Below the pieces are notes generated by a model, which saw only the letters and a list, made by a program, of their open reading frames with translations, was not told the origin of the DNA and did no database searches. Shown in pieces: positions 14,320 to 50,699 of a stretch of DNA of 64,000 nt (its first letter is position 1; every line of letters starts with the position of its first letter). A program made the translations under genes and the position numbers. This DNA is from Candidatus Bathyarchaeia archaeon. Lineage in GTDB: Archaea; Thermoproteota; Bathyarchaeia; Bathyarchaeales; Bathycorpusculaceae. Where the stretch lies: assembly GCA_050015395.1 (NCBI GenBank), contig JBEKBM010000010.1:25267-89266 (forward strand). The letters run 5' to 3'.

Positions 14320-14508
14320 ACTTTAGTTAGCCAAATAGCCCGACGAAAACTTGTTATCGCTTACCCTGATTAAACCGAATTGGATGCCTTTAAAAGAATG
14401 AGCGAAAGTGAAACAGGACGTGTGCTCGTTCGAGATAGGGCTGATCCAAAGAAACTTCTGGGCGTTGTAACTAAAATCGACCTAACGCGTACCTTAACGA
14501 TGCAGTAA
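14320..14508 (+). pseudogene. 3' remnant of a CBS-domain gene
   Basis: TLVSQIARRKLVIAYPD*TELDAFKRMSESETGRVLV...LLGVVTKIDL; TAA at 14371-14373. Confidence 0.7.
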
Positions 14509-14579
14509 GCGACCGCTAAATCACCTTTATTAAGTTAACAAGCCTTAATTTATTAATTGAGTTCAGGTGCCCGAATTTT

Positions 14580-15062
14580 ATGGTTGAATGCTCTGTAGAA
14601 AAAAAGCAAGGAACCAATTCTTTAGCACGTATTTTGTTGATTATAATAACTGTTGCGGCTGTCTTTGGCGTCGTTTTGAGTTTAATTTATCCAGAATTTA
14701 TTAACTTGCTGTCTGTAGGTGGCGCTATTTACAATGCGATTTATGTAGTGCTTACCGTGGCCGCTGATGCGCTCTATCTTTTCGGCGGTGGTATTATAGC
14801 TTTTGGCGCCATATTGGTAACGATCCGGTTTATTCAATGTAAACTCAAGGATCCTTTTCAAACATCATCTTCTACGCGGATCTTGTCAGGATATTTAACG
14901 TTAGGTCTGAACTTTTTTATTGGCGCAGAAATCATTCGTACAGTGGCTGTTAGAACTATTGGCGAGTTCGAATTGCTTCTTTTTGTAATTTTCAGCCGAG
15001 GTCTCTTCAGCTTGATTCTTTACTTGGAAAAAAGATGGCATGGGACAACTGAAACAGAATAA
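14580..15062 (+). CDS. DUF1622-like membrane protein
   Basis: LTLGLNFFIGAEIIRTV motif; several TM segments. Confidence 0.7.
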   Translation: MVECSVEKKQGTNSLARILLIIITVAAVFGVVLSLIYPEFINLLSVGGAIYNAIYVVLTVAADALYLFGGGIIAFGAILVTIRFIQCKLKDPFQTSSSTRILSGYLTLGLNFFIGAEIIRTVAVRTIGEFELLLFVIFSRGLFSLILYLEKRWHGTTETE

Positions 15063-16310: not shown

Positions 16311-17871
16311 CATAGACATTATTAACGTAATTGAAACCAAACTCAAAGACAAAGTCCAAATTCAACTAGGCCAACTTGGCAAAGCCGCAATAGTCACCAG
16401 CAATGGCTTACACAGAGACGTGCTCAAAGCAATGGTGGAGGCAGACGAGAAAACCGCTATCATAGCCATTACCGGTTTAGACCTTGGAGCAAACCTAGGC
16501 GTACTATACCATATTCGCACTTCAAACGCGTTCCTAACCATACGAGCAGAAGTGCCAAAGGACAACCCAAAAATTCAAACAGTAATCGACATTATTCCCG
16601 GCGCCGTATTTCATGAATTGGAAGTGTCTGACCTCTTAGGTGTAGTCTTCGAAGGGAACAGGCTCCCAGGACACTTTGTTTTATCAGAATATTGGCCTGA
16701 GGGCGTTTACCCCTTAAGGAAAGATGTTAAAGCAAGTGAAATAAAACTAAACCCGCCACCTCCTGAAGAAGAAAAACAACCGGAATATGGCAAAATCGTA
16801 AAAATCATTATTGGTCCACAGCACCCTGCACTATTGGAACCAGAAAAATTCGCCGTAACAGTTGATGGAGAAACTGTAACTAAAGTTGAACCCAGAATCG
16901 GCTACGTGCACAGGGGAATAGAAAAAGCAGCTGAATCACGCACTTACCTGCAAGATGTTTACTTGATTGAGCGAATCTGCGGCATATGTAACACCATACA
17001 TGCTTGTAACTTCGTTGAAGGTGTTGAAAAAATATTAAAAACTGAGGTTCCGCCAAGAGCCAAGTATCTGCGAGTAATAGCTTTAGAACTCAACCGGCTA
17101 CATAGCCACTTACTAACGTTGGGTCACGCAGGGTTAGAAATAGGTTATGAAACGTTGTTCCAGTATTTCTGGAGAGACCGAGAGCCAATCATGGATCTAA
17201 TTGAGTTAACCAGCGGTAACCGTGTTTACGCGTCACTCATGACTGTAGGCGGCGTAAGACGAGACCTAAAAGACACTGACCTCCCCAAAATCAAGACGAC
17301 CTTGGAGGACCTGAGGAAGAAGCTGCCGTTCTACAGGCAAATCTACCGGGACGAACCTTCAATAAAGGCTCGTATGCAAAAGGTGGGTGTACTTAAAAGA
17401 GAAGATGCATTAAAACTGTGCGTTGTTGGTCCAGTAGCCCGAGGATCAGGTGTTGACATTGACGTACGCAAGGATGAGCCTTATGAAGCGTATGGCGAGA
17501 TTCCATTCAAAGAGATAGTTTATACTGAGGGCGATACGTGGGCAAGAATGAATGTCCGTATGAATGAAGTTGAAGAAAGCATCAATATAATCGAGTACGC
17601 AATTGACCACTTGCCAACAGGGCCATTCCGAGTTAAGGCGCCGAGAGTTGTTCCTGCAGGTGAAGCTGTTAACCGGGTTGAAGCTCCAAGAGGCGAGCTA
17701 TTCTGCTACATTAAAAGCAACGGCACAGCCTTTCCAGAACGCGTCAAAGTGCGCACTCCAACATACGCTAACATTCCCGCCTTCCTCAAAACAGCAATAG
17801 GTGAAAACATAGCTGACGTTCCTCCGAACTTTGTTAGCTTAGACCCATGCTTCTCATGCACAGACAGATGA
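16279..17871 (+). CDS. Fused NuoC/D-like group 4 [NiFe]-hydrogenase large subunit
   Basis: NuoC part (ELEVSDLLGVVFEG...YPLRKD), GPQHP, GYVHRGIEK, L1 ERICGICNTIH and L2 DPCFSCTDR. Confidence 0.93.
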   Translation: MRRQNQTPNSNIDIINVIETKLKDKVQIQLGQLGKAAIVTSNGLHRDVLKAMVEADEKTAIIAITGLDLGANLGVLYHIRTSNAFLTIRAEVPKDNPKIQTVIDIIPGAVFHELEVSDLLGVVFEGNRLPGHFVLSEYWPEGVYPLRKDVKASEIKLNPPPPEEEKQPEYGKIVKIIIGPQHPALLEPEKFAVTVDGETVTKVEPRIGYVHRGIEKAAESRTYLQDVYLIERICGICNTIHACNFVEGVEKILKTEVPPRAKYLRVIALELNRLHSHLLTLGHAGLEIGYETLFQYFWRDREPIMDLIELTSGNRVYASLMTVGGVRRDLKDTDLPKIKTTLEDLRKKLPFYRQIYRDEPSIKARMQKVGVLKREDALKLCVVGPVARGSGVDIDVRKDEPYEAYGEIPFKEIVYTEGDTWARMNVRMNEVEESINIIEYAIDHLPTGPFRVKAPRVVPAGEAVNRVEAPRGELFCYIKSNGTAFPERVKVRTPTYANIPAFLKTAIGENIADVPPNFVSLDPCFSCTDR

Positions 17872-40030: not shown

Positions 40031-40288
40031 GGCTATAAGTTGAGGTTGAGGAATGTTTTATCTATTCCGCAGTTTTTGGCTACGAAAGGTAGGCTGGCAG
40101 TCTTCCTAAAATCGAGGAATATAATTTTTTCTGGTGTTTCAGGGTCATTTTTGGGTTGTTTTTTAGGAACAGGCGTTGATTTAAACGTGTCTTACCCGTC
40201 ACGCATCCATGTCGTAACTAGTCACGCAACCACATAGAAACCTGTCACTAATCAGAAATTCTTATTGCTTCCGATAGCGCATTATGTT

Positions 40289-40609
40289 GTGGGCTGGCGA
40301 GTTGGTGTGTGGCTTTCGGACCCAAAAATGCTGGGTCTGAGGAAACTCCGCCCACGTGTAGAATTGCAGTGCCCTCAGGGTACAGGGCGAGAGCCTTGGC
40401 AACGGAGCAGAAACGAAACGTCCAATTGGACTTGGCGATGAGACATTTGTGATGTCGAGTGTGCCAGTTTGGAAGCGGTGAAACGGCCGTCCTGCAAGTG
40501 GAAAGGGCAAACAGTCGCCGATGAAGCCTCTACCTGAAGGCGCGGGTAGCCCGATTAGCCGAATGCCACAGACAACAGAAGGCGGGTTACAACCAACACA
40601 CCACGCCCA
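40289..40609 (+). ncRNA. rnpB: RNase P RNA (archaeal type A-like)
   Basis: Conserved GAGGAAACTCCGCCC, GGCAACGG..CAGAAACG, GGTGAAACGGCCGTCC, GCCGATGA, TAGCCGAATG and ACAGAAGGCGGGTTA; P2 (GTGGC/GCCAC) and P1 pairing visible. Confidence 0.95.
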
Positions 40610-40654
40610 TTACTTAACCAGAGGATATATTGATAATGAAGACATTAACTTACT

Positions 40655-41050
40655 TTAGTTGTTGAATTTTCTTGCGTCTTCCAATAGTTCTTCAAGTAAC
40701 TTGTCCTTTTTCTCAGTATCATGGATTTCACTGCAGATTGACTTGCCGATAGAAAGTTTTGTCTTTAAGATTGTAATATCTTTATAGCGGGTGAAAATTC
40801 TATCAAGTCTTTTATGCGAGTCATCACTTCTTTTAAAAAAGAGAACAGATACGGCCCCTAAAATAATTCCTGAAATTGATGACAACTCAGAAACTGATAA
40901 AGTAATTATCTGTACATATACCAAAAATACACCAATAAATATCATTATAGCGGCAATGCTCGCGAAGAATATACCTATTTTGTGATTCTCATCAGCTTGT
41001 TTGAGAGCCAATTGATAGTAATCTTCTAAACTATCATTGGTTTCACTCAT
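40655..41050 (-). CDS. Two-TM protein resembling the TRADD-N-associated membrane domain
   Basis: DYYQLALKQA, two TMs, then SGIILGAVSVLFFKRSDD; coupled (ATGA) to the TPR gene. Confidence 0.55.
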   Translation of the reverse strand: MSETNDSLEDYYQLALKQADENHKIGIFFASIAAIMIFIGVFLVYVQIITLSVSELSSISGIILGAVSVLFFKRSDDSHKRLDRIFTRYKDITILKTKLSIGKSICSEIHDTEKKDKLLEELLEDARKFNN

Positions 41051-41994
41051 GACTTGATTTCGCCAGCCTGCCCAATTTGTTTGCTGCTCTCTAGTGCCAT
41101 TTCATAGTATGTTTTAGCCTTCTTAGAATCACCCAAATTGCCGTATATTGCCCCTAAAGCGGAATAGCAAGCCGCTTCAGTCGATTTATCGCCTATTTCG
41201 AGTGCAATTTCCAAAGCCTTTCGATAATTTGATTTGGCTGCCTCAAAATCCTTTTGGGTAACATTGACATCACCAATGGCAACATAACATGCCGACTGCA
41301 GTGTTCGGTCACAGATCTCAGTGGCAAGACTTAGAGACTTTTTGTAGTACTCAATTGCCTTCTCGTTGTCTTCGAGAGAATGGTATATATCCCCCAGATT
41401 GATGTAACCCTTTGCTTGACCTGCTCGATTGCCTATTTGTAATGCTATTTCAAGCGCTTCTTTTTGGTATTTAACCGCTTTTGTTAAGTCTCCTATGTTT
41501 CGATAGATGACACCGATATTACCAATTGCTAATGACTCACCAATTTTGTCCTTCGTCTCAATGGTTATAGCCAGGGCTTGCTCGTAATTTTTCAGAGCCT
41601 TTTCAAACATGTTTAAATTCGAATAAACATTACCAATGTTCAAATAAGATTTCGCAAGAATCATTTTATCCTGAATTTGTGTTTCGAGTGCTTTCTCCAA
41701 ATAAGTAAGGGCGACCTTTAAATCATCCAAAAAATACTCGGCATAGCCTAAATTCACGTATGTTTGTGCTTCCCCTAATTTGTCGCCAGTCTTAATATAG
41801 AAAACCAAAGCTCTTTTCCAAGAAAGCACAGCGAATTTATACTTCAAGTTATCGAGAAGAACTTTCCCAATTTCAGAAAGTAAAAGGGCTTTTTCTTTAG
41901 GGTCCGGATACTTTTTTTCGATTAAACTAAGAAAATCCTCAAAATTCTCCTGACTTTCAGCGGTAGCTAATATTGCTCGGTCTATTTCACTCAT
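41047..41994 (-). CDS. Tetratricopeptide-repeat protein (about 40-aa TPR units)
   Basis: Repeated NLG/NIG..Y...A..Y..AL.IA..IGD units. Confidence 0.9.
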   Translation of the reverse strand: MSEIDRAILATAESQENFEDFLSLIEKKYPDPKEKALLLSEIGKVLLDNLKYKFAVLSWKRALVFYIKTGDKLGEAQTYVNLGYAEYFLDDLKVALTYLEKALETQIQDKMILAKSYLNIGNVYSNLNMFEKALKNYEQALAITIETKDKIGESLAIGNIGVIYRNIGDLTKAVKYQKEALEIALQIGNRAGQAKGYINLGDIYHSLEDNEKAIEYYKKSLSLATEICDRTLQSACYVAIGDVNVTQKDFEAAKSNYRKALEIALEIGDKSTEAACYSALGAIYGNLGDSKKAKTYYEMALESSKQIGQAGEIKS

Positions 41995-42232
41995 TTTATC
42001 AACCGTTTTGCTGGCGATTGATTAATATCTTCTTTTTCTTAAAAAGCTTTAATTTACCTGATCTTAAGGTTGTACCTTATTGTTTGAGGTTATACGAGGG
42101 CAACGCAAAACTGCAACAATATTGATAGTTCTCCAGTGAACTGAGCAAGAAGCTGAGCTATCGCTTAAACTCCCCCGCCAACAATAATTGTAGATTGGCA
42201 ATTTCTATTCTTCTACGCAATAGGGTACTTGT

Positions 42233-42263
42233 GAAGGCGGTTACAAACAACACACCAAGCCCA
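42233..42263 (+). repeat. Diverged copy of rnpB 3' end
   Basis: GAAGGCGG-TTACAAACAACACACCAAGCCCA vs native GAAGGCGGGTTACAACCAACACACCACGCCCA (40578-40609). Confidence 0.9.
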
Positions 42264-42489
42264 AAAACAAGCTTTTTGTCTTTTCCTTTTTGCTAGCTTC
42301 TTTTCAAACTGATTCATGTTTTTAAAACAACAACTTGCGCTTTTGAAAGGAAAGAAACCTAAAGCACGTTAGTCTAAAACAATCCATTGTAGTAATTTTT
42401 ACTGTTTTCTGTCAAAAAGCGATTTATACACTAGCGCTAGTGTTGTTGTTGTTATGTTTAACGCTACGGGGAAAGGGCGGCAAGGAAAA

Positions 42490-43005
42490 ATGAGCTATGC
42501 AAATATCGTTGATATTTTGACAATTATTTTCGGAAGTAGTGCATTAATAACCCTGATAGGTTATGCTTTTCAATATAATCAACACAAGTCAGAAAAAGAT
42601 TTTGAAGCAAGGAAAGTAGCACAAGAGTACTACATGACACTATATGGTTACATCGGCGTTTTAGACGAACTAACGAAAAGCTATCTTAGAAGCATTCAAG
42701 ATGGGAAAGCAGAAGTTTTCTCGTATGACAATGGTTTAATTGAGGTTCAAACGTCCGAGAAAATACTTGATAACTACAAGAATAAGTATGTTAACTTTGC
42801 TAGTTTTTACCTTAAGAAATCATGCGAAGGCTACGAGATCTTTGTATCAAAAAAACTCAAAGGGTTATTGATAAAATTTTGGAAAACAGCCAAGATTTTT
42901 TATGACGAACCCTCAAGCCTGAAAAATAAACAGACAGTTGAGAAATTCAATAATGCCGCGAAAGAAACAACCGACAGTATGGAAAAATTATTCGGATTAA
43001 AGTAA
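42490..43005 (+). CDS. hypothetical protein with N-terminal TM
   Basis: AT-rich ORF, one TM then a helical domain. Confidence 0.7.
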   Translation: MSYANIVDILTIIFGSSALITLIGYAFQYNQHKSEKDFEARKVAQEYYMTLYGYIGVLDELTKSYLRSIQDGKAEVFSYDNGLIEVQTSEKILDNYKNKYVNFASFYLKKSCEGYEIFVSKKLKGLLIKFWKTAKIFYDEPSSLKNKQTVEKFNNAAKETTDSMEKLFGLK

Positions 43006-43091
43006 GAGGTATGTAGGCATGCGATTGGAAGAAAAAAATGTTTTCTTAGAAAGAATTTCACTATCTGATTTAGCAAATAAGCAAGCACGAG

Positions 43092-43292
43092 GTGATACGA
43101 ATGACGAGAGAAAACGTGTCATACGATAATGTGGAAATTAAGAAATCTCGAATTTCTATGGATAGCATGAGGCAACCAATGATTCAAGGCGGCAGAATTT
43201 CCCTTGGGAATATTTCAGACGAATCACGAATATCTTATACTAACCTTTCTAACAAGTCTCAGGGTCAGGCGAAAAACACAGGCAAAAAATAG
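43092..43292 (+). CDS. hypothetical small protein
   Basis: GAGGTGA RBS; 66 aa with recurring (S/G)RIS. Confidence 0.45.
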   Translation: MIRMTRENVSYDNVEIKKSRISMDSMRQPMIQGGRISLGNISDESRISYTNLSNKSQGQAKNTGKK

Positions 43293-43375
43293 CTAACATT
43301 AAAGGCAATGGATAATAAGGCGAGCAATGTCGCAACAAAAAAGAAAAAAAGCGTTGGAGATAAAAACCGCTTCTT

Positions 43376-43870
43376 TTATTTGTTTTCACTTGTTTTAACC
43401 TTTATTACAACGGCACCGGTAACTATTGCAATCAACGCTACAATAATGAGGGATATGGGGAACTCTGGAACTGATGGCGTGGGTGTAGCTGTTGCTTGTT
43501 GAGCTTCTACGGTTATTGTATAGCTATCTAAGTTGGCTGCGCTTATTTTGAGGTAGTAGCTGCCTGGTTGCATGTTGTGTTCGTAATTAACGCCGCTATT
43601 TTGGTTTGATTGTGCCATGATGCTGTCTACGGGCAGGTTGTTGCCTTGCTGGTAAACGTCTATGTAGAATGCTGCGTATGTTGGGGTTGAGCTGCTGTAG
43701 GTCCAATTGAGAAGCCATTCGCTGCTGGGTACGTTGAAGTAGTTGGTTGTTTGGTCACTGGCGCCTGTTATAGTTGTTACTTGCTGGTAAGTTTGTGCAC
43801 TTACGAAGCCAGCGGTCGCAAGAACCGTAATTGCTAATATGATTAAGGTTGCTCTTTTTTGATTTTTCAT
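43376..43870 (-). CDS. Secreted protein with PEF-CTERM-like (VPEFP + TM + basic tail) sorting signal
   Basis: Signal peptide MKNQKRATLII...VSA; ATPTPSVPEFP, TM helix, KVKTSENK. Confidence 0.82.
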   Translation of the reverse strand: MKNQKRATLIILAITVLATAGFVSAQTYQQVTTITGASDQTTNYFNVPSSEWLLNWTYSSSTPTYAAFYIDVYQQGNNLPVDSIMAQSNQNSGVNYEHNMQPGSYYLKISAANLDSYTITVEAQQATATPTPSVPEFPISLIIVALIAIVTGAVVIKVKTSENK

Positions 43871-44012
43871 TTTTTGTTCATTCCCTATTTTCTCGCTGTG
43901 TATTCTATACACAAAAATGCACCGCTTCTCTGTTTGTCAGGGATTCTTTTTAAGTCTTGTGTATGAGTGAGTACGTTTGAGTATTAACGCAATAAACAAG
44001 GAGGGTGAAAAC

Positions 44013-44195
44013 TTGACTGAAAAAGAGACGATTGAAAGCATGGCAAAAATCAGGCTTCAAGTAACGGTAAGAGAAGACCTTGTAAAGTATATAGATGAAC
44101 AGGTGGAAAAACTCAGGTTTGCAAGCAGATCACACGCTATCGAATACGCATTAACTCAACTAAAGGAAAAGGACAGACAAGAAAAAAGAGCTTAA
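44013..44195 (+). CDS. CopG/ribbon-helix-helix DNA-binding protein
   Basis: RLQVTVREDLVKYIDEQVEKLRFASRSHAIEYAL; GGAGGGTG RBS. Confidence 0.85.
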   Translation: MTEKETIESMAKIRLQVTVREDLVKYIDEQVEKLRFASRSHAIEYALTQLKEKDRQEKRA

Positions 44196-44331
44196 GGCAG
44201 GCATTTAATGCTCGCAAGCGGTTTCAACTAGTTATTAAGAGCGCTCATGTGCAATTCAAGTAGTAGATATCAATTACCGATAATTAGCTGTTAATCGGAG
44301 AAAGAGTTTCTTACAAGCCCATAAATGTTTA

Positions 44332-44393
44332 AAACGTTTGTCCTGTAAGTTGAAAGGGCAAAGAGAAGGCGGGTTACAACCAACGCACCAGCC
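44332..44393 (+). repeat. Internally deleted copy of rnpB 3' region
   Basis: AAACG...GTCCTGTAAGTTGAAAGGGCAAA (matches 40481-40511) joined to AGAAGGCGGGTTACAACCAACGCACCAGCC (matches 40577-40607). Confidence 0.92.
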
Positions 44394-44414
44394 TCCCAAA
44401 CTTAGAGTGCTTGG

Positions 44415-44586
44415 TTAGACGATTTTTATGTTGTGTTTACCAACACTGGCGAGTTTTTGGTCTCTTGTTAGTAAAACCTCATCGTGGGCCAGTGAAATAC
44501 CCGCAGTAAGCAAATCGTTCTCATTAATCAATCTTCCAGCATCCTGTAGCTCTTCAAAAAGCATGGCGGCTTTTTTGGCGGCTGCT
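44415..44586 (-). pseudogene. C-terminal half of a VapC/PIN toxin
   Basis: AAAKKAAMLFEELQDAGRLINENDLLTAGISLAHDEVLLTRDQKL; N-terminal half absent. Confidence 0.8.
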
Positions 44587-44589
44587 TAG

Positions 44590-44925
44590 TCACTCAAATG
44601 TCCTTCCGTAATTTGCCTCTCTTTCGGCAGCTATTTGCTGCTTTAATCGCTCCAGTTTCTCCTTATCATCCTTTAAGATGCCAGCCAAGCGCATGATGTC
44701 CCCTTTATCTTCTCCGCGTAGTTTTTTTTGATACTTGACTGGGTCTCCATAAAGACCTTTTCCAATCCCCTTTAATTCGGCTACGGGGTCAACTGGTTTT
44801 AGAAACAAGCCCTCATTCGTGGCGCTTATCTCGAGAATTGTGTGGCTTTTAATGTTGAATCTTTCTCGGAGGTTATTAGGAAGAACTATTTGACCACGCT
44901 TGCCAACTTTTACTTTCTGAGACAT
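44590..44925 (-). CDS. AbrB/MazE-type antitoxin, apparently fused to a second VapB-type tail
   Basis: KVGKRGQIVLP...EGLFLKP AbrB fold, followed by DIMRLAGIL...EREAN. Confidence 0.8.
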   Translation of the reverse strand: MSQKVKVGKRGQIVLPNNLRERFNIKSHTILEISATNEGLFLKPVDPVAELKGIGKGLYGDPVKYQKKLRGEDKGDIMRLAGILKDDKEKLERLKQQIAAEREANYGRTFE

Positions 44926-44998
44926 CTTGCGTCAAGCTATAAACTGTAAATTCGGGAAATAACCTTTGTGGCAGATCACACGGTCTATACCTAGTGGC

Positions 44999-45047
44999 GC
45001 CGAAATAAAACCAAAAAGAATGCGGTTTACAGCCTACACTTCCTGCC
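44999..45047 (+). repeat. Degenerate copy of rnpB 3' end
   Basis: AGAATGCGGTTTACAGCCTACAC vs AGAAGGCGGGTTACAACCAACAC (19/23); upstream GCCGAA at near-native spacing. Confidence 0.7.
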
Positions 45048-45065
45048 TGCTTATATCCTGAGGCT

Positions 45066-45389
45066 CTAACTTCTGAGTGCAGTAAGTTGGTTGTTTTTGA
45101 GTTTGTAAATTATGAATGTATCGGGGTCTGTTTTGTTTATAGACCGCTTTGTTCTCCACATGCTGCCCGCTTGGTAGGTAAGTTGATGTTTTATTAGTAT
45201 TTCTTGTATGCATTTTTTTGTTTCTTCATCGAGGGCTGTTTTTATAGTAATTTGATACCCGCCCATCGTTGACGAAGAGACGTTAGGTGATGATAATTCC
45301 AAATAATGGCCATCAAGACCACGGCAATTGTCAAGAAGTTCCTTCAGAACCGATATTGCTTCTTCCCGTTTCAAAACAATCCCTAACAA
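45066..45389 (-). CDS. hypothetical protein
   Basis: 107-aa ORF ending 19 bp from an rnpB-like repeat. Confidence 0.6.
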   Translation of the reverse strand: MLGIVLKREEAISVLKELLDNCRGLDGHYLELSSPNVSSSTMGGYQITIKTALDEETKKCIQEILIKHQLTYQAGSMWRTKRSINKTDPDTFIIYKLKNNQLTALRS

Positions 45390-45491
45390 CTCTCTTAGGA
45401 ACTTCTCATAAAAAAGATTCGGTAAGAGGGAAGATGACGTTTAGGCGCTCAACCGAAAATAATACATTGATGTCTAGCTTCAATACTAAGT

Positions 45492-45965
45492 GTGACCCAT
45501 TTGTCGAAAAAGGAATACGATACCCTTGAAGTTGTGCCGCATGTCGATCTAAAAAAGTACTTGGGCAAATGGTATGAGATAGCACGTCTTCCCGCCAGAT
45601 TTGAAGAAGGCTGTTCCGATATAACAGCAACTTACTCTCTACGTGAAGATGGCACTATATCTGTGCTCAACGAATGCAAAAGGAACGGCAAAGTGAAACG
45701 GGCAAAGGGCAAGGCAAAAGTGGTTGACAAGAACACTGGAGCGAAACTTAAAGTAACATTCTTCTGGCCATTTTACGGTGACTACTGGATCATAAATTTG
45801 GGGAAAGACTACGATTACGCCGTTGTAGGCACACCAAACCGCAAGTACCTTTGGATACTAAGCAGAACCCCACAAATGGACGACAAGCTATTTTCCCAAT
45901 TAATAGAACTTGTAAAGTCAAAAGGTTTCGATGTTACAAACCTTATTAGAACCAGCCATACCTAA
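45492..45965 (+). CDS. Lipocalin (Blc-like), no signal peptide
   Basis: YLGKWYEIAR, DYWII...DYDYAVVG and LWILSRTP motifs. Confidence 0.92.
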   Translation: MTHLSKKEYDTLEVVPHVDLKKYLGKWYEIARLPARFEEGCSDITATYSLREDGTISVLNECKRNGKVKRAKGKAKVVDKNTGAKLKVTFFWPFYGDYWIINLGKDYDYAVVGTPNRKYLWILSRTPQMDDKLFSQLIELVKSKGFDVTNLIRTSHT

Positions 45966-46176
45966 TGAAAAAACCTATCCATTCTGAGTTTCAACGCTTT
46001 TTTTCAAGCCAGCAAACGAAGAAAGAAAGGGTCATGTGTGAATGCGTTATTTTCTTAACCAAACGCTAAATATCCATTAGAGAAAACCCTGTAAAAGCTT
46101 ATAACTAGATACCACAAAAAGAACACAGGGATTAAAAATGAGTGAAGAAATAAGTAGAAAAAAATTACTAAGCCCA

Positions 46177-46209
46177 AAGGCGGGTTACAACCAGCACACC
46201 AGCCCACAG
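46177..46209 (+). repeat. Copy of rnpB 3' end
   Basis: AAGGCGGGTTACAACCAGCACACCAGCCCACAG. Confidence 0.92.
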
Positions 46210-46393
46210 CTAAACTCATCTACGGTTTCGGTTTTCTAAAAATCACGATTTTTTGTTATGTAAACGAAGCAGAAACCACATTAGGCTACAGTTTCGTTAG
46301 TAACTATCAAGGGATATCTTACGAAGCCAGCTTAGATTTGGATAATAATATTAGCATCGAAAATTTTTTACCGCAGAATAGCGTATTAACAGT

Positions 46394-46618
46394 TTGAGGG
46401 TGTATATTATGGCTGTACTCGAATGCCCCTTCTGTTATGAACTCCTTGAAGTTGAGCCGCCTGATAGACTCCATACAGCATATTCATCAGTAAAGCCAAT
46501 ACTAAATAGTTACTATGGCGATATTGTGAAAAAGAAATATAAGTGCCAAAACCCAAACTGCAAAAAGTCAATTACAGCTTTCTGGTATGCGCCACTAGAA
46601 TACTTCAGCCGAATATGA
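46394..46618 (+). CDS. Small Zn-ribbon protein
   Basis: CPFC...CQNPNC. Confidence 0.65.
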   Translation: MRVYIMAVLECPFCYELLEVEPPDRLHTAYSSVKPILNSYYGDIVKKKYKCQNPNCKKSITAFWYAPLEYFSRI

Positions 46619-46770
46619 CGACTCCAAATAACTCATATGAATAACCGACCAGCATCAGCTCTTTTGCAGAAACTTAGGTGCCTTCTCGGATACAACCACT
46701 AATTTCCTGCGTAAATGGATAGAAACCTTAAATCTAAATTGAATCTAATAGAGATAGAGGCTGAAATTTC

Positions 46771-46983
46771 ATGGCAGACAATGTTTTGGTGGAAGTAAGT
46801 GTAAGCCGGGACAAAGGCGAAATTGTGTACAAGGTTGATTGCTCTAGTAACTTAACAAATGAAGAACTCGAATATTACCTTAAAGAAATAATTGAAGGTA
46901 TATGCAAATGGAAACCAGGCGTTTGTGAAGAAACAGTGAAAAGCTTTAAAGGAACAATCAGAAAAAGGAAAACAAACAAATAA
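46771..46983 (+). CDS. hypothetical small protein
   Basis: ATG ORF with GAGG RBS and upstream TATA-like motif. Confidence 0.55.
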   Translation: MADNVLVEVSVSRDKGEIVYKVDCSSNLTNEELEYYLKEIIEGICKWKPGVCEETVKSFKGTIRKRKTNK

Positions 46984-47092
46984 TCCAAACCAAATTAAGA
47001 AACAATCATTTATATTTTTTCAAGATTTGACCTAATAACCTTACTTGCGAGAAAAAAAGGATTAACTATCCGAGAAATTTGACTCTTAGGTT

Positions 47093-47413
47093 TTACCTGT
47101 TATATTTGGGACGTTTGGATTCTCTGAGCCAAAATTGAGGGTCATCAACCAATATGACCTGAACCTCAACGACATTTCTGGGACTTGTTATTGCGGCGCG
47201 GAATTTCGGGGATAAATCTGTGTTACTTAGAAATGCCATTCTGGACTCTTCCAACTGATCCGCGATGCGCTCAGCTTTTTTGTTTGCGTAGCCGCGGTAC
47301 TTTACGCTTTTTCCTTCAACGATAGCTTTATCGAAAGCCTCTTTACTGCACTGTACCAGTTTGGCGCCGTCTCGGATGAACCAGCAGGCAAGAGTTGGAG
47401 AAGTCTTGGTCAT
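47093..47413 (-). CDS. hypothetical protein
   Basis: 106-aa ATG ORF. Confidence 0.6.
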   Translation of the reverse strand: MTKTSPTLACWFIRDGAKLVQCSKEAFDKAIVEGKSVKYRGYANKKAERIADQLEESRMAFLSNTDLSPKFRAAITSPRNVVEVQVILVDDPQFWLRESKRPKYNR

Positions 47414-47644
47414 AATAATCTGTTAGCAATATCGTTTAGGTGACTCTTAATTAACATTTTCATTGCAAACAGAAAGATGCGCCTCAGAAGTCGAATTTAA
47501 AGCAAATCATCTCAGGAACTGAAATCCCGCTTCAGACTGACGTGTTTATCATCATAGGCACTTCAAAACGATAAATCGGAAAAAAGAGGCTTAGTTTTGC
47601 TAAACGGTTAATCACTTTTCAATACGAATAATAATCCTGTGATG

Positions 47645-47761
47645 TTAACGTTTGATGATGAGCATATGGCCCTTATGGTTAACAATTCTGTGGATTCTTA
47701 GCTCTTCAGGATTATTAAATTTCGCTGAACAGATTCTGCATTTATACGATTCTCCAAACAT
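47645..47761 (-). CDS. Stand-alone classical C2H2 zinc-finger mini-protein (not in ORF track)
   Basis: MFGESYKCRICSAKFNNPEELRIHRIVNHKGHMLIIKR = Y-x-C-x2-C-x3-F-x5-L-x2-H-x4-H; alternative TTG starts at 47782/47788 after GGAGAAGG. Confidence 0.8.
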   Translation of the reverse strand: MFGESYKCRICSAKFNNPEELRIHRIVNHKGHMLIIKR

Positions 47762-47919
47762 GACTTTGTTATCCAGTATCAAACTCAACCTTCTCCCTAT
47801 TGGCTTTGCAAAAATCGCTTCTTACAAGCCATCTTAAAGAGCAACTAAGCCACTTATAAACAAATGATAAATTCCTGCTAAACCGCCATACCTTTCGTTG
47901 AATTGTGTTAAAATTCTTC

Positions 47920-48141
47920 TCAGATTTTTTTTTGATATTTGACTGGGTCTCCGAAAACGCCTTTTCCAAGCCCTTTCATCTCAGCTATCGGATTGAAAGG
48001 TTTCAAAAGTAAGCCTTCCCCTGTTTCCTCAATCTCTAAAATTATTCCCTTTTCTATTTTAAATTTTCTGCGAAGTTTTTGGGGAATAACCACTTGCCCA
48101 CGTGTACCAACTTTAGGTGTATCGACAAAGTGTATCAACAA
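47920..48141 (-). CDS. Second AbrB/MazE-type antitoxin (paralog of 44590-44925), possibly truncated, no toxin
   Basis: KVGTRGQVVIP...EGLLLKPFNPIAEMKGLGKGVFGDPVKYQKKI*; TGA where the paralog has Arg. Confidence 0.72.
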   Translation of the reverse strand: MLIHFVDTPKVGTRGQVVIPQKLRRKFKIEKGIILEIEETGEGLLLKPFNPIAEMKGLGKGVFGDPVKYQKKI

Positions 48142-48173
48142 AATGTATTGACATTTGACCCCCCGGTAGGTAG
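48117..48173 (+). repeat. 3 x 13-bp tandem repeat followed by CCGGTAGGTAG
   Basis: gtgtatcgacaaa gtgtatcaacaaa atgtattgacatt tgaccccccggtaggtag. Confidence 0.75.
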
Positions 48174-48394
48174 TAGACTACAAACGTATATTTCGGTCCT
48201 GTTGAAACCACGGCAATAGAAGACCTAAATGCCAAAGACACGAAGCGCCTCAGAACGCATTTTAATTTCAAGTCATCTTTTGGGAAACAGCAGTAAGCTG
48301 AAACCCTCATCCAAACGTGCAATTATCTTCATTGGCGCCATTAATACTTTCGCAGTCTTGTTAAAATCGGTAGCTAACGTAAATATCTGCGTAT

Positions 48395-48447
48395 GCCGAT
48401 GAGTCCACCTGCCTGAAAACAAGGGTAGCCCCCGATTAGCCGAATGC
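48395..48447 (+). repeat. Diverged internal fragment of rnpB
   Basis: GCCGATGA...CCTGAA....GGGTAGCCC(CC)GATTAGCCGAATGC vs native 40517-40566. Confidence 0.88.
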
Positions 48448-48755
48448 AACACTAATTCATAATTCAATTACCCGTCTTCAGCGATAAGTAAAAGGGGTAC
48501 TCTTTTAGCTCGAAAAATAAGTTAACAAAAAGACATGGAGGGGCAGGGCAGGTCTATTTAGCTAGTGAAACCAGTCTAAAAAGAGAAGGGGAGGACAACT
48601 CATTTTTGCTCGCGAATTTCTTAGTCGAAAATGAGGTACCGGCAGGGCAGGCACACTATTGATGAAGATTCCTCGGCAAAAAATGCAGGTATCCCTCTCG
48701 AGGAGTTATCAGCTTTCTGGAAAAAAAGAAATTTTAAAAGCAGCAATTATTATTA

Positions 48756-50699
48756 ATGTTAAACCTAATGAATAAATTAACGTTTTCACGCTCAGCGGTT
48801 AGTAAGCTTCAAGCAATCATTCTTCTCATTGTAGTAATATTTGGCGCACTGGTAGCGGTTAACTATTTCTATCAAAGTCAGCTTATGTCGCCGCAGCCGA
48901 CTCCTTCGCCCTCGCCTTCGCCCTCGCCTTCTCCTTCGCCCATGCCTTCCACTGCGCCAGCTGCATTAAAATACTCCAATTTAAACGTAGAGCCAACTGA
49001 GGCTTGGCCTGGGCAACTGGTCAACGCTTCCCTGGATGTCAGCAACACAGGAAGCGAAAACATCAGTTATTTGCTACCTTTCTCAGTGAACGGTGTAGTT
49101 AACCAAACTGTTGAGGTGCAACTGGCAGGAGGAGCTTCCGAAACCGTAACGGCGACATTTAATGAGAGCAGTATTGGAACTTACCAGTTAACTGCCGGAG
49201 GGCAAAGCAATCAATTTAGCATCGTTCCAACAGGCGAATACACGTTGCACTATATTTCCAGCGCCAATGGGTTTCCCTTCACTTTGGACGGCGTGTCTGA
49301 AGTTTCCCCGTTCTCTGGACTGGTAGCTGCTGGACCACATACAATTGCTGTTCCGTCTGTAGCCCAAATTGAAGTTGGCGGTTGGGGTCTTGTTTCATAC
49401 GACTTTTCGAGCTGGAACAGCGGAAGTACTAGCCTTACTCAAACATTTAACGTGCAGGGTGAGACTTACGCGGTGACAAATTATATTAGGCAAGGTTCAT
49501 GTCCCTCCTTGGAAGTCTGGAACGGAACGGGCTATAGTTACGTTGGAGAAGTCAATGACGGCACAGGCTGGCTAGGCTACTTGGAGTATTTTCAACCTGA
49601 TGGCTCAATGGTTTTCTCTTACAACTACCCATATGACTACATGAAACTGGATTCAACTCAACTGCAGCCACTCAACGGATTTTACAACTTTAAAATCGCT
49701 GAGCTGTCCGACGAAATCTTCTATCTCGACTCAGTCAAAATGATTGCCGTAGATCAACCCGCAGACGTGAATGTGTTTTCTACCGCGAGCACATTCATAT
49801 ACAATCTTACAGGTCAAGGAACAATTTACACGGTAAGCGACAACTTAGCTACACCAGTCTCCGCGGTAAATGGAACAGGACAAAATGTTCTGCCATTAAT
49901 CTCCAAGCTGGACGGAAACTTCACAACTGGAACCACATGGGCATGGCAAAGCCTAACGCTTAATATAGGCAACCTAACCGGCGCACAAGAGATCAACCTA
50001 GTAGTTGCAGCCAAAATTACTTGGCCAACCACCCAAGCTGGAGGCGAAAACTTCCTAAACTACGCCAACCAACCAGGAGTAACGCCTTCCCCGCCGCCCT
50101 ACATGCAAGTAATGGCGCCAAACGGAAGCTGGGTTAATGTCCCTGACGACCGAGAGTTTCCGATACCTCATGTAACGGACAGTGAATTTGTCGTCAACTT
50201 AACAGGCCTCTTTCCAACTAACAATTACGAATTAAAAATTAACTACTACCAAGACATTCAGTTCGATTACATAGGCATCAGCACGACACTCCAGCAGAAC
50301 ATAATTGTTCACACCATAACGCCCTCATCCGCTAATTTGGAGCAAGCATTCGGCGTAAACTCAAACTCCAGCGGAGCATTCACAAAGTACGGCGACGTTA
50401 CAGCGCTGCTGCAGTCCGCCGACGACAAGTTCGTCATCGGACGAGAAGGAGACGTGGTTTCAATACAATTTTCTGCAAACCTGCCGCCTGTTCCAAAAGG
50501 TTGGGTAAGAGACTACTTTATCGTCGCCAGCTGCTGGTTCAAAGGCGAAGGCTTGCCCTACGTCCCATTCACGGTTAATCCGCTTCCATTCCAAGCAATG
50601 ACCAGTTTTCCATACCCATCAAACGAAAGTTACCCCTATGACGCCGATCACCTAGCTTATCTGCAGGAATACAACACAAGAATAATTAATTCGCCTTAA
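48756..50699 (+). CDS. Membrane-anchored extracellular protein (Pro/Ser linker, CARDB-like Ig domain, large C-terminal domain)
   Basis: N-terminal TM, (PS)n linker at 48891-48950, VSNTG...VNG Ig-like segment, GSCPSLEVWNG. Confidence 0.75.
   Translation: MLNLMNKLTFSRSAVSKLQAIILLIVVIFGALVAVNYFYQSQLMSPQPTPSPSPSPSPSPSPMPSTAPAALKYSNLNVEPTEAWPGQLVNASLDVSNTGSENISYLLPFSVNGVVNQTVEVQLAGGASETVTATFNESSIGTYQLTAGGQSNQFSIVPTGEYTLHYISSANGFPFTLDGVSEVSPFSGLVAAGPHTIAVPSVAQIEVGGWGLVSYDFSSWNSGSTSLTQTFNVQGETYAVTNYIRQGSCPSLEVWNGTGYSYVGEVNDGTGWLGYLEYFQPDGSMVFSYNYPYDYMKLDSTQLQPLNGFYNFKIAELSDEIFYLDSVKMIAVDQPADVNVFSTASTFIYNLTGQGTIYTVSDNLATPVSAVNGTGQNVLPLISKLDGNFTTGTTWAWQSLTLNIGNLTGAQEINLVVAAKITWPTTQAGGENFLNYANQPGVTPSPPPYMQVMAPNGSWVNVPDDREFPIPHVTDSEFVVNLTGLFPTNNYELKINYYQDIQFDYIGISTTLQQNIIVHTITPSSANLEQAFGVNSNSSGAFTKYGDVTALLQSADDKFVIGREGDVVSIQFSANLPPVPKGWVRDYFIVASCWFKGEGLPYVPFTVNPLPFQAMTSFPYPSNESYPYDADHLAYLQEYNTRIINSP

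Follow-up and report, generated by a model that had tools for sequence, protein, structure and literature searches.

A tandem array behind the RNase P RNA gene of a bathyarchaeon, probably built by repeated integration at the 3' end of rnpB

Results

Displaced copies of the rnpB 3' end

We analysed a 64,000-nt stretch of DNA (the window) from a Candidatus Bathyarchaeia archaeon (GCA_050015395.1, contig JBEKBM010000010.1). The genome, here called G000, is a metagenome bin of 2.59 Mb in 42 contigs, and the window lies on its contig C10. It contains rnpB, the gene for the archaeal RNase P RNA, and behind it about 8 kb of small gene blocks separated by displaced copies of the gene's own 3' end (R1 to R5, Table 1). 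The gene was recognised by a plus-strand match to RF00373 (window 40297-40601; 191 bits against a gathering score of 84; full model, 1-288). Its P1 helix, read by eye, can be extended by 7 bp to give ends at 40290 and 40609, in agreement with the initial annotation of this DNA. Whole-genome BLAST found one full, intact copy of rnpB. No Rfam family besides RF00373 was detected between 40000 and 49000, even at E <= 1, and no tRNA was found in the window.

R1 to R5 all lie on the strand of rnpB. They were located with a repeat finder and local alignments, and every repeat listed initially was recovered by these means. With up to 3 mismatches allowed, the 25-nt terminus of the gene has 3 matches in the window and none in 100 dinucleotide-preserving shuffles. 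Minus-strand genes end 46, 22 and 19 nt past the native terminus, R2 and R3, respectively, as the initial annotation had described (20-46 bp). Folded as single-stranded DNA, the repeat copies (n = 4) reach -1.4 to -5.3 kcal/mol, and the native copy alone is modestly better than its shuffles (z -2.7). R2 lacks rnpB 40515-40573, which is nearly what R5 consists of (40517-40570); these complementary pieces, 4 kb apart, look as if one long copy had been split in two. A stretch of 33-40 nt inside the lipocalin gene of the array (45691-45730) also resembles the R2 junction (AAGTGAAACGGGCAAAG...GTGGTTGACAA), probably by chance.

Outside the array, BLAST against the whole genome found solid copies of the terminus only on contigs C9 and C6, and a search with the core pattern gave 6 matches genome-wide, including one weak match with 3 mismatches on C7 (reversed pattern, 0). 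The motif thus concentrates behind rnpB, and the objection raised at the outset, that it might be scattered over the genome, is not borne out. The copy on C9 (85790-85844) is of the long type described below, with 56 nt at 93% identity (copy length, 55-95 nt). It follows a 76-aa AbrB gene after 43 nt (C9:85511-85878; L001 8511-8878), and the pair lies between core genes (ABCE1-like and THUMP-like), far from rnpB. This AbrB is ~93% identical to the AbrB at the distal end of the array in the relative G003, where no rnpB fragment is present beside the gene. The copy on C6 (79358-79380; L002 9359-9381, minus strand) is an isolated terminus of 21-23 nt, with an AbrB/PIN pair 1.7-2.4 kb away (L002 11124-11778). 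The guanine-plus-cytosine (GC) content is 0.33-0.44 across 40500-48500, compared with 0.46-0.50 in the flanks.

Integrases behind rnpB in related genomes

The host genus is represented by 120 species-level genomes of Bathy-6-type Bathyarchaeia, with related loci from bog, palsa and other wetland. We found the core (up to 3 mismatches) in 107 of these genomes, with at least two copies in 71 and at least three in 37; the reversed pattern occurs 0-1 times per genome. The gene itself is 82-96% identical across the genus. We then compared rnpB and up to 8 kb downstream in 74 of the 96 genomes with an Infernal rnpB match above the cut-off. An extra core copy on the same strand is present in 44 of the 74 regions (at least two extra copies in 9, at least three in 1), and all 74 together hold a single opposite-strand match (reversed sequence, 0).

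An open tyrosine-integrase frame of at least 280 aa starts no more than ~100 nt after rnpB in 12 of the 74 genomes, and shorter or frameshifted integrase pieces (pseudogenes) occupy the same place in 12 more; these calls are open frames, and openness is no proof of function. The proposal that rnpB is a recurrent insertion site is thus supported by the blocks bounded by displaced 3' ends and by integrase genes or pseudogenes directly after rnpB in 24 of 74 genomes. For integrases directly after rnpB, PF00589 was matched at 3e-17 to 5e-17 in G003, at 4e-16 in G008 and at 2e-6 by a fragment in G014. Three integrase lineages lie beside rnpB, all matched by PHROG integrase families: the G008 type (~380-405 aa) and the G003 type (~306-335 aa), both on the rnpB strand, and the G014 type (~390 aa), which is encoded on the other strand and has its C-terminus towards rnpB. 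When six G008-type proteins were aligned (A1), R154, K185/K191, H266, R269, H292 and Y301 (R..K..HxxR..H..Y) were invariant. Where the integrase frame is open, the element spans 2.9-6.4 kb between rnpB and the core copy that follows.

An alignment-based search of representative genomes detected 25 G008-type loci, all from Bathyarchaeia or Thermoproteota. Directly upstream of the integrase we found rnpB in 17 (15 full, 2 cut by the contig start), a 3' fragment only in 4 and nothing in 4. The corresponding counts for 39 metagenome loci are 25 with rnpB (14 full, 11 cut by the contig start), 4 with a fragment only and 10 with no BLAST match. The tyrosine recombinases that the initial annotation had suggested seeking next to rnpB 3' fragments therefore exist in relatives' genomes and in metagenome loci alike. 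Among 401 genomes sampled evenly across the class, 17 carry the G008-type lineage (E <= 1e-40). Both matches from another genus of the window's family have rnpB adjacent, and five matches in other families (1e-44 to 1e-97) have neither rnpB nor a tRNA within 1.5 kb; rnpB targeting is therefore seen only in the window's family.

Three G008-type loci (L136 1048-1130, L140 431-480, and G010, L030, just after rnpB) have two to three AAGTCCAAYACA-like words between the core and the integrase start, which are candidate arm-type integrase binding sites. Near the contig end of a Bathyarchaeota bin, two full rnpB copies in inverted orientation surround an integrase (L122 176-479 and 2855-3161), which could be an assembly artefact or an inversion. 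A locus of G090 (L048; G090:C7, 6510-11139) holds three terminus copies and a full G008-type integrase with no rnpB body. The integrase follows a unit of AbrB plus attachment (att) site, so elements can evidently insert into displaced att copies away from rnpB.

Element anatomy and classes of core copy

The closest relative, G003, is a closed single-contig genome whose rnpB is 96% identical to that of the window. Its first element (4.5 kb) consists of rnpB, at once followed by a 306-aa integrase, a 380-aa Cys-rich protein on the other strand and a core copy; a second segment (6.5 kb) contains an integrase C-terminal fragment and a PLD-like gene and is closed by another core copy. The window has neither. 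No family in Pfam, PHROG or NCBIfam matched the 380-aa protein. In a protein atlas its top matches are Bathyarchaeota hypothetical proteins, followed by Rep_1-bearing clusters (17%, 64% and 49% of members; scores 0.95-0.96), and HWHIV and YICK words were recognised by eye. We treat it as a putative rolling-circle Rep, a lead and not a finding. A 395-aa gene combining a Zn-ribbon and an integrase (L029 562-1749) lies 1.3 kb upstream of rnpB in G003, where the window has different genes.

Alignment of copies from 12 genomes placed the start of rnpB identity at AAGGCGGG (window 40579); with 15 copies aligned, the extra copies of 8 genomes agree with rnpB from there on. Left of AAGGCGGG, several extra copies have conserved element DNA (...ATTACTAAGCCC) in place of rnpB. 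The G003 attR and the window's native rnpB share the terminus ...CACGCCCA, whereas the G003 attL reads ...CACCCCAA, as would result if on integration the element gave the gene a new end and displaced the old one. The left arm of R4, ~87 nt (GCTTATAACTAG...ATTACTAAGCCC), aligns with the far-end arm of L136, a metagenome element with a G008-type integrase at its start. An alignment of R4, the L136 attR, G003, G001 and G008 (A2) has a mean column identity of 73%; GCTTATAACTAG and ATTACTAAG(C/G)C vary hardly or not at all. Judged by this arm, R4 is the attR of an element of the integrase types in plus orientation.

The 54 extra copies fall into three classes. The first has the R4-type arm and occurs with the two plus-strand integrase types; strict matching found this arm at 12 of the 54, and many more have a TTACTAAGCCC-like word. 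The second has another arm (...GTGGCAATTTCGCCAAA...) and occurs with the minus-strand type; the class-B arm word gave nothing but noise when sought throughout the window genome. Copies of the third class are long, reaching 60-138 nt into rnpB, and accompany an opposite-strand VapC/VapB (or AbrB) pair in G002, G091, G037, G069 and G117, and in G094 at a non-rnpB locus. R2, R3, R5 and the C9 copy of the window genome are of this long kind and likewise lie beside AbrB/VapC genes. The non-rnpB long-copy loci showed no synteny with the C9 locus of the window genome.

Variability and stability of the array

Synteny with relatives is kept upstream of rnpB and returns at ~50745, and the variable stretch between measures 5-14 kb depending on the genome. 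The initial annotation had asked whether relatives share the same gene content here; they do not. Inserted segments differ among them, and a strictly empty site with identical flanks was not seen. None of the 73 other genomes has, behind rnpB, a homologue of the genes of blocks 1 and 2 (encoding the 2TM, TPR, 183-aa, 178-aa and RHH proteins), whereas the distal genes of blocks 3 to 5 recur in that position in 2-14 genomes. Unique proximal and shared distal genes fit newer insertions beside rnpB that push older ones outward. R2 and the VapC region are orthologous to the third att copy and VapC of G003 (window 44366-44586 and G003 14353-14575, 85%).

In 24 public peat and wetland runs from 22 studies (2017-2025), 0.89-1.00 of the sampled words of 40200-48600 are present; 16 of these runs are possible sources of the genome, and many may stem from one campaign or source sample. 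R1 and R2 are both crossed by a contig of 4053 nt (40574-44626) that is identical in two independent runs; a third run has one of 4049 nt that crosses them too. In each of four runs compared, none of them flagged as a possible source, contig depth is the same over blocks 1 and 2 as over the flanks. Contigs break at the cores, and alternative joints were found at 46201->45090 (4 runs), 40602->46159 (2) and 46204->48491 (1). Gaps between the listed short-k contigs carry no evidential weight. Arrays of the same kind are present in the single-contig genomes G003, G014 and G060.

Gene content of the array

The genes of the five blocks are listed in Table 1. Pfam agreed with the initial labels for the 2TM, TPR, RHH, two AbrB/MazE and lipocalin proteins and, weakly, the C2H2 protein. 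The PEF-CTERM label of the 178-aa frame gained no family match; its basis is a 'PEFP' motif, a transmembrane helix and a basic tail, and nothing else.

Table 1. Features of the rnpB locus and of the array behind it (positions in the window; TM, transmembrane)
Feature	Position	Strand	Match or description
rnpB	40290-40609	+	RF00373 plus P1 extension
Proposed attachment core, attL of the array	40578-40609	+	Identity block AAGGCGGGTTACAACCAACACACCA, start 40579
Block 1: 131-aa 2TM protein	40655-41050	-	Pfam CyanoTRADDas_TM 3e-11
Block 1: 315-aa TPR protein	41047-41994	-	Pfam TPR_12 9e-55
R1	42233-42263	+	Matches rnpB 40578-40609; 1 gap, 2 mismatches
Block 2: 183-aa protein	42454-43005	+	No Pfam, NCBIfam or PHROG match
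Block 2: 178-aa secreted protein, PEF-like C-terminus	43376-43912	-	No Pfam, NCBIfam or PHROG match
Block 2: 72-aa RHH protein	43977-44195	+	RHH_1 1.7e-5
R2, long-type copy	44332-44404	+	44332-44365 = rnpB 40481-40514; 44361-44404 = 40574-40616
Block 3: truncated VapC, 49 aa	44415-44564	-	Likeness to relatives' full VapC
Block 3: 111-aa AbrB/MazE-type antitoxin	44590-44925	-	MazE_antitoxin 1.6e-7
R3, degenerate long-type copy	44999-45068	+	Local alignment to 40558-40629; 73% identity over 30-nt core
Block 4: 107-aa protein	45066-45389	-	Homologues behind rnpB in 8/73 other genomes
Block 4: lipocalin	45492-45965	+	Lipocalin_2 4e-53; homologues behind rnpB in 14/73 other genomes
R4	46090-46215	+	Element-side arm 46090-46176 and core copy 46177-46215 (= 40579-40618)
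Block 5: 74-aa Zn-ribbon-like protein	46394-46618	+	
Block 5: 70-aa protein	46771-46983	+	
Block 5: 106-aa protein	47093-47413	-	Homologues behind rnpB in 14 other genomes
Block 5: 47-aa C2H2-like protein	47645-47788	-	zf-C2H2 8e-5, below cut-off
Block 5: 73-aa AbrB protein	47920-48141	-	MazE_antitoxin 1.3e-7
R5, distal array end	48395-48451	+	Internal rnpB piece 40517-40570 only, without terminus

In block 1 the TPR gene overlaps the gene for the 2TM protein, whose family is the 'Cyanobacterial TRADD-N associated 2-TM domain' (PF20712). The pair is unique to the window genome among the 74 regions and may be of a conflict or defence type. In 6 genomes, VapC genes behind rnpB have C-termini that share 58-81% identity with the VapC fragment of block 3, whose full-length counterpart in G003 matches TA_toxin_VapC (4.5e-15). 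The adjacent 111-aa antitoxin looks chimeric from its sequence: the N-terminal AbrB domain resembles a G003 AbrB (16474-16688; 73% of nt) and the C-terminal tail matches another G003 antitoxin (14774-14897; 89% of nt). Beyond the array, at 48888-48959, a periodic repeat of 12/18 nt encodes a Pro-Ser run in a 647-aa secreted CARDB-like protein; the number of repeats varies among contigs of one run.

Discussion

The integrases beside rnpB in relatives, together with the arm that R4 shares with an integrase-bearing element, lead us to regard the array in the window as very probably a tandem accretion of decayed integrase-borne elements at an attachment site in rnpB, of which five integrase-less remnants are left over 8 kb. 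In the mechanism that we propose, the last ~26 nt of the single rnpB would serve as the attB core for integrative elements of 3-6.5 kb, which would carry tyrosine integrases of at least three lineages and circulate in this peat and wetland genus. An element would recombine with the core, its own core copy and flank rebuilding a complete rnpB (attL), and the former 3' end would be shifted downstream to form the far boundary (attR). Repeated insertion, mostly proximal to rnpB, followed by loss of the integrase and most other genes, would then leave remnants in tandem. Pieces of AbrB/VapC toxin-antitoxin (TA) modules may persist because losing them harms the cell. The initial annotation had found the blocks (0.6-2.2 kb) too small for whole proviruses; we would explain their size by decay of the 3-6.5 kb elements, half of the integrases in relatives being pseudogenes already. 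Since the remnants have no integrase and the genome no recognisable cognate integrase, the array is probably immobile now, a fossil.

Several results weigh against accretion of this kind. Thirty of the 74 genomes have no extra core copy within 8 kb of rnpB, and the 74 were taken from a listing and not at random, 8 of them with less than 8 kb downstream. As noted initially, no integrase is visible in the window: its contig has no PF00589 match, and tblastn detected no remnant on C10 with any of its queries, seven of integrases or their fragments and two of Rep. Six PF00589-like places exist in the window genome, all on other contigs, and none is a G008-type integrase at E <= 1e-40. A homologue (57% identical) of the integrase upstream of rnpB in G003 lies at C8:92650-93685, split over two frames. 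We rejected it as a source acting in trans: it is frameshifted, and an att-like site was not found nearby. Of the suggestion that an integrase acts in trans, what stands is that site-specific integrases exist; relatives supply them in cis, beside rnpB. An attP in viral contigs, also suggested at the outset, did not come to light in shallow searches: the exact core is in 0 viral contigs, and the G003 integrase and the Rep-like protein have no confirmed relatives there. In a similarly shallow search, 0 of the 39 G008-type metagenome loci have terminal repeats, that is, a circular attP form. The complementary fragments R2 and R5 have no explanation under accretion, and the long copies beside VapBC could come from homologous and not from site-specific recombination. 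Gene order also speaks against it. Pieces shared with G003 run A,B,C,D in the window but D,B,C,A in G003, with no inversion, and the units of VapCB plus att and of the 107-aa protein plus lipocalin are swapped between the window and G069. Such permutation is unlike simple proximal accretion, and insertion at inner copies, or movement of cassettes, must therefore also have occurred. The alternative joints in metagenomes, which fall at the cores, favour accretion, but they were seen in contigs of short k, matched at a likeness of at least 90%, and may stem from other strains or species.

The permuted order is one reason to consider that blocks without an integrase are still mobile, especially the ~0.7-kb unit 'att - VapC/VapB - att', with incoming rnpB-specific integrases excising them and putting them back at any att copy. 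On this view the array would be a locus of gene capture and shuffling and not a graveyard, and it is in present-day mobility only that this possibility differs from accretion of decayed elements. The order changes between close relatives with no inversion in G003 and G069 alike; an att-bounded VapC-VapB unit is found directly after rnpB (G002, G091), within arrays (G037, G069, G117 and the window) and at a non-rnpB locus (G094); att with AbrB lies away from rnpB on C9 and in G090:C7, an integrase element having inserted at such a copy in G090; and the metagenome joints fall at cores. The differing positions can also be put down to different histories of proximal insertion, however, and addiction accounts for the persistence of TA genes. 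The window genome has no cognate integrase, no excised circle was seen among the 39 metagenome loci, and the 8.4-kb stretch kept in 24 runs argues for stability. We therefore consider present-day mobility unlikely, with perhaps one chance in several. If true, the array would be functionally analogous to an integron, with the end of a ribozyme gene in the place of attI/attC, and mini-cassettes of VapC/VapB with 60-140 nt of rnpB would move in trans, also to att copies elsewhere in the chromosome.

Homologous recombination is a somewhat more doubtful source of the array. Here, circular or linear DNA with a 60-140-nt piece of the rnpB 3' end would cross over in rnpB (Campbell-type insertion), or whole downstream flanks would be exchanged between relatives with rnpB as anchor, for which an identity of 82-96% across the genus could suffice; the long-type copies would be the outcome. 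Long copies of 60-138 nt do occur in R2, R3, R5 and C9 and in G002, G037, G051, G069, G090, G091 and G117, and of nine long-copy loci that were fetched, eight are at non-rnpB sites and one is in the G037 rnpB array, most with no integrase nearby. The short copies, by contrast, start at the same base (AAGGCGGG) in many genomes, beside conserved arms, the signature of a site-specific crossover. Three integrase lineages sit exactly at the site, and an exchange of flanks cannot yield tandem duplicates of a gene end. A length of 26-32 nt is also very short for homologous recombination. The homology-anchored capture envisaged by the initial annotation is thus possible for the long copies with VapBC only.

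That strain variants sharing rnpB were collapsed or chained at a 23-32-nt repeat during binning is very improbable: the genome is a bin of 42 contigs, contigs of short k end at the cores and the same samples offer other continuations of rnpB, but the repeats are shorter than sequencing reads, and the contigs that span R1 and R2 in three runs, the equal depth of blocks 1 and 2 and their flanks in four, and the same architecture in the closed genomes G003, G014 and G060 make an artefact, including the chimeric assembly considered at first, unlikely.

Accretion of decayed elements at rnpB would add a new kind of target, the catalytic RNA gene of RNase P, of which three integrase lineages make use and which most genomes of this large, uncultured genus have occupied. 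The end of an essential, single-copy, structured RNA gene appears to be a property on which integrases converge, the archaeal case being independent. In the part of the published catalogue that deals with mobile elements of Bathyarchaeia, only viruses have been recorded so far (PMC10541130); the region behind rnpB is a strain-variable marker by which small plasmid-like elements of this class can be found. The compact pairs of integrase (~380 aa) and att site (~26-nt core) could become integration tools if Bathyarchaeia are ever cultured. Annotators should take the rnpB fragments scattered through these genomes for att scars rather than for pseudogenes of functional interest.

Comparison with known systems

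Integrons, which have also been reported in Archaea, hold small, unrelated and TA-rich cassettes beside a fixed anchor, and their order varies between relatives. The array behind rnpB shares small, unrelated, TA-rich cassettes, a fixed anchor and variable order, and the initial annotation had called the locus integron-like. In contrast to integrons, the repeats here reproduce the end of a gene in place of attC hairpins, both strands carry genes, many cassettes are multi-gene, and the contig has no IntI-type integrase or attI. With mixed orientation and neither attC-like hairpins nor IntI/attI, the rnpB array is therefore not an integron.

Among cis-mobilisable elements (CIMEs) and in the accretion of streptococcal integrative and conjugative or mobilisable elements (ICE/IME), segments flanked by att sites but devoid of an integrase stand in tandem with integrase-bearing elements at one site. 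Integrase-less, att-flanked segments at one chromosomal site are what we find here too. The host is archaeal, however, no conjugation or transfer genes were seen, and mobilisation is here only proposed.

Integration into the 3' ends of tRNA and transfer-messenger RNA (tmRNA) genes is textbook knowledge. The rnpB elements resemble such elements in the tyrosine integrase that relatives have beside attL, in a presumed crossover within the 3' end of a structured-RNA gene, in the replacement end by which the gene would be kept intact and in the displaced fragment, which would be attR. A 2025 paper lists tRNA/tmRNA and csRNA genes as attB sites in non-coding RNA and presents the signal recognition particle RNA gene ffs as novel (PMC12540744); the passages concerned do not name rnpB as a target. 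We found no paper naming rnpB as an attachment site in the literature searched, which was mostly open-access, so an earlier mention is possible.

The 'suicidal' SSV-type integrases of hyperthermophilic archaea are, as far as the relevant section of their description goes, likewise tyrosine integrases that belong to small elements and have RNA genes as targets (PMC7253208). In that type the att site lies inside the integrase gene, which is split on integration; here whole frames of 335-405 aa stand beside attL, and the conserved integrase N-terminus starts after the att core (G008 compared with G010; A1 consensus). With the gene unsplit, the rnpB elements are therefore not of the SSV type.

The genomic islands of Dehalococcoides, in the portions of the study that describe them, follow ssrA, a tmRNA gene present in one copy, in tandem, bounded by 20-bp repeats of the gene's 3' end; 16 have an integration module and 15 do not, and the latter are discussed as possibly cis-mobilisable or fixed (PMC3146451). 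Of the published cases found, this is the closest, and the array behind rnpB is its counterpart. The rnpB elements differ in having RNase P RNA as target, an archaeal host and tyrosine recombinases of three lineages in place of a serine recombinase. They are also much smaller (3-6.5 kb, with remnants of 0.6-2.2 kb), and their cargo consists of TA modules and small proteins and not of dehalogenase genes. What the two have in common is a single-copy, essential stable-RNA gene as landing site, direct repeats of ~20 nt from its 3' end, an integration module beside attL in some islands and none in about as many, and strain-specific segments of low GC content at which synteny is broken (PMC3146451).

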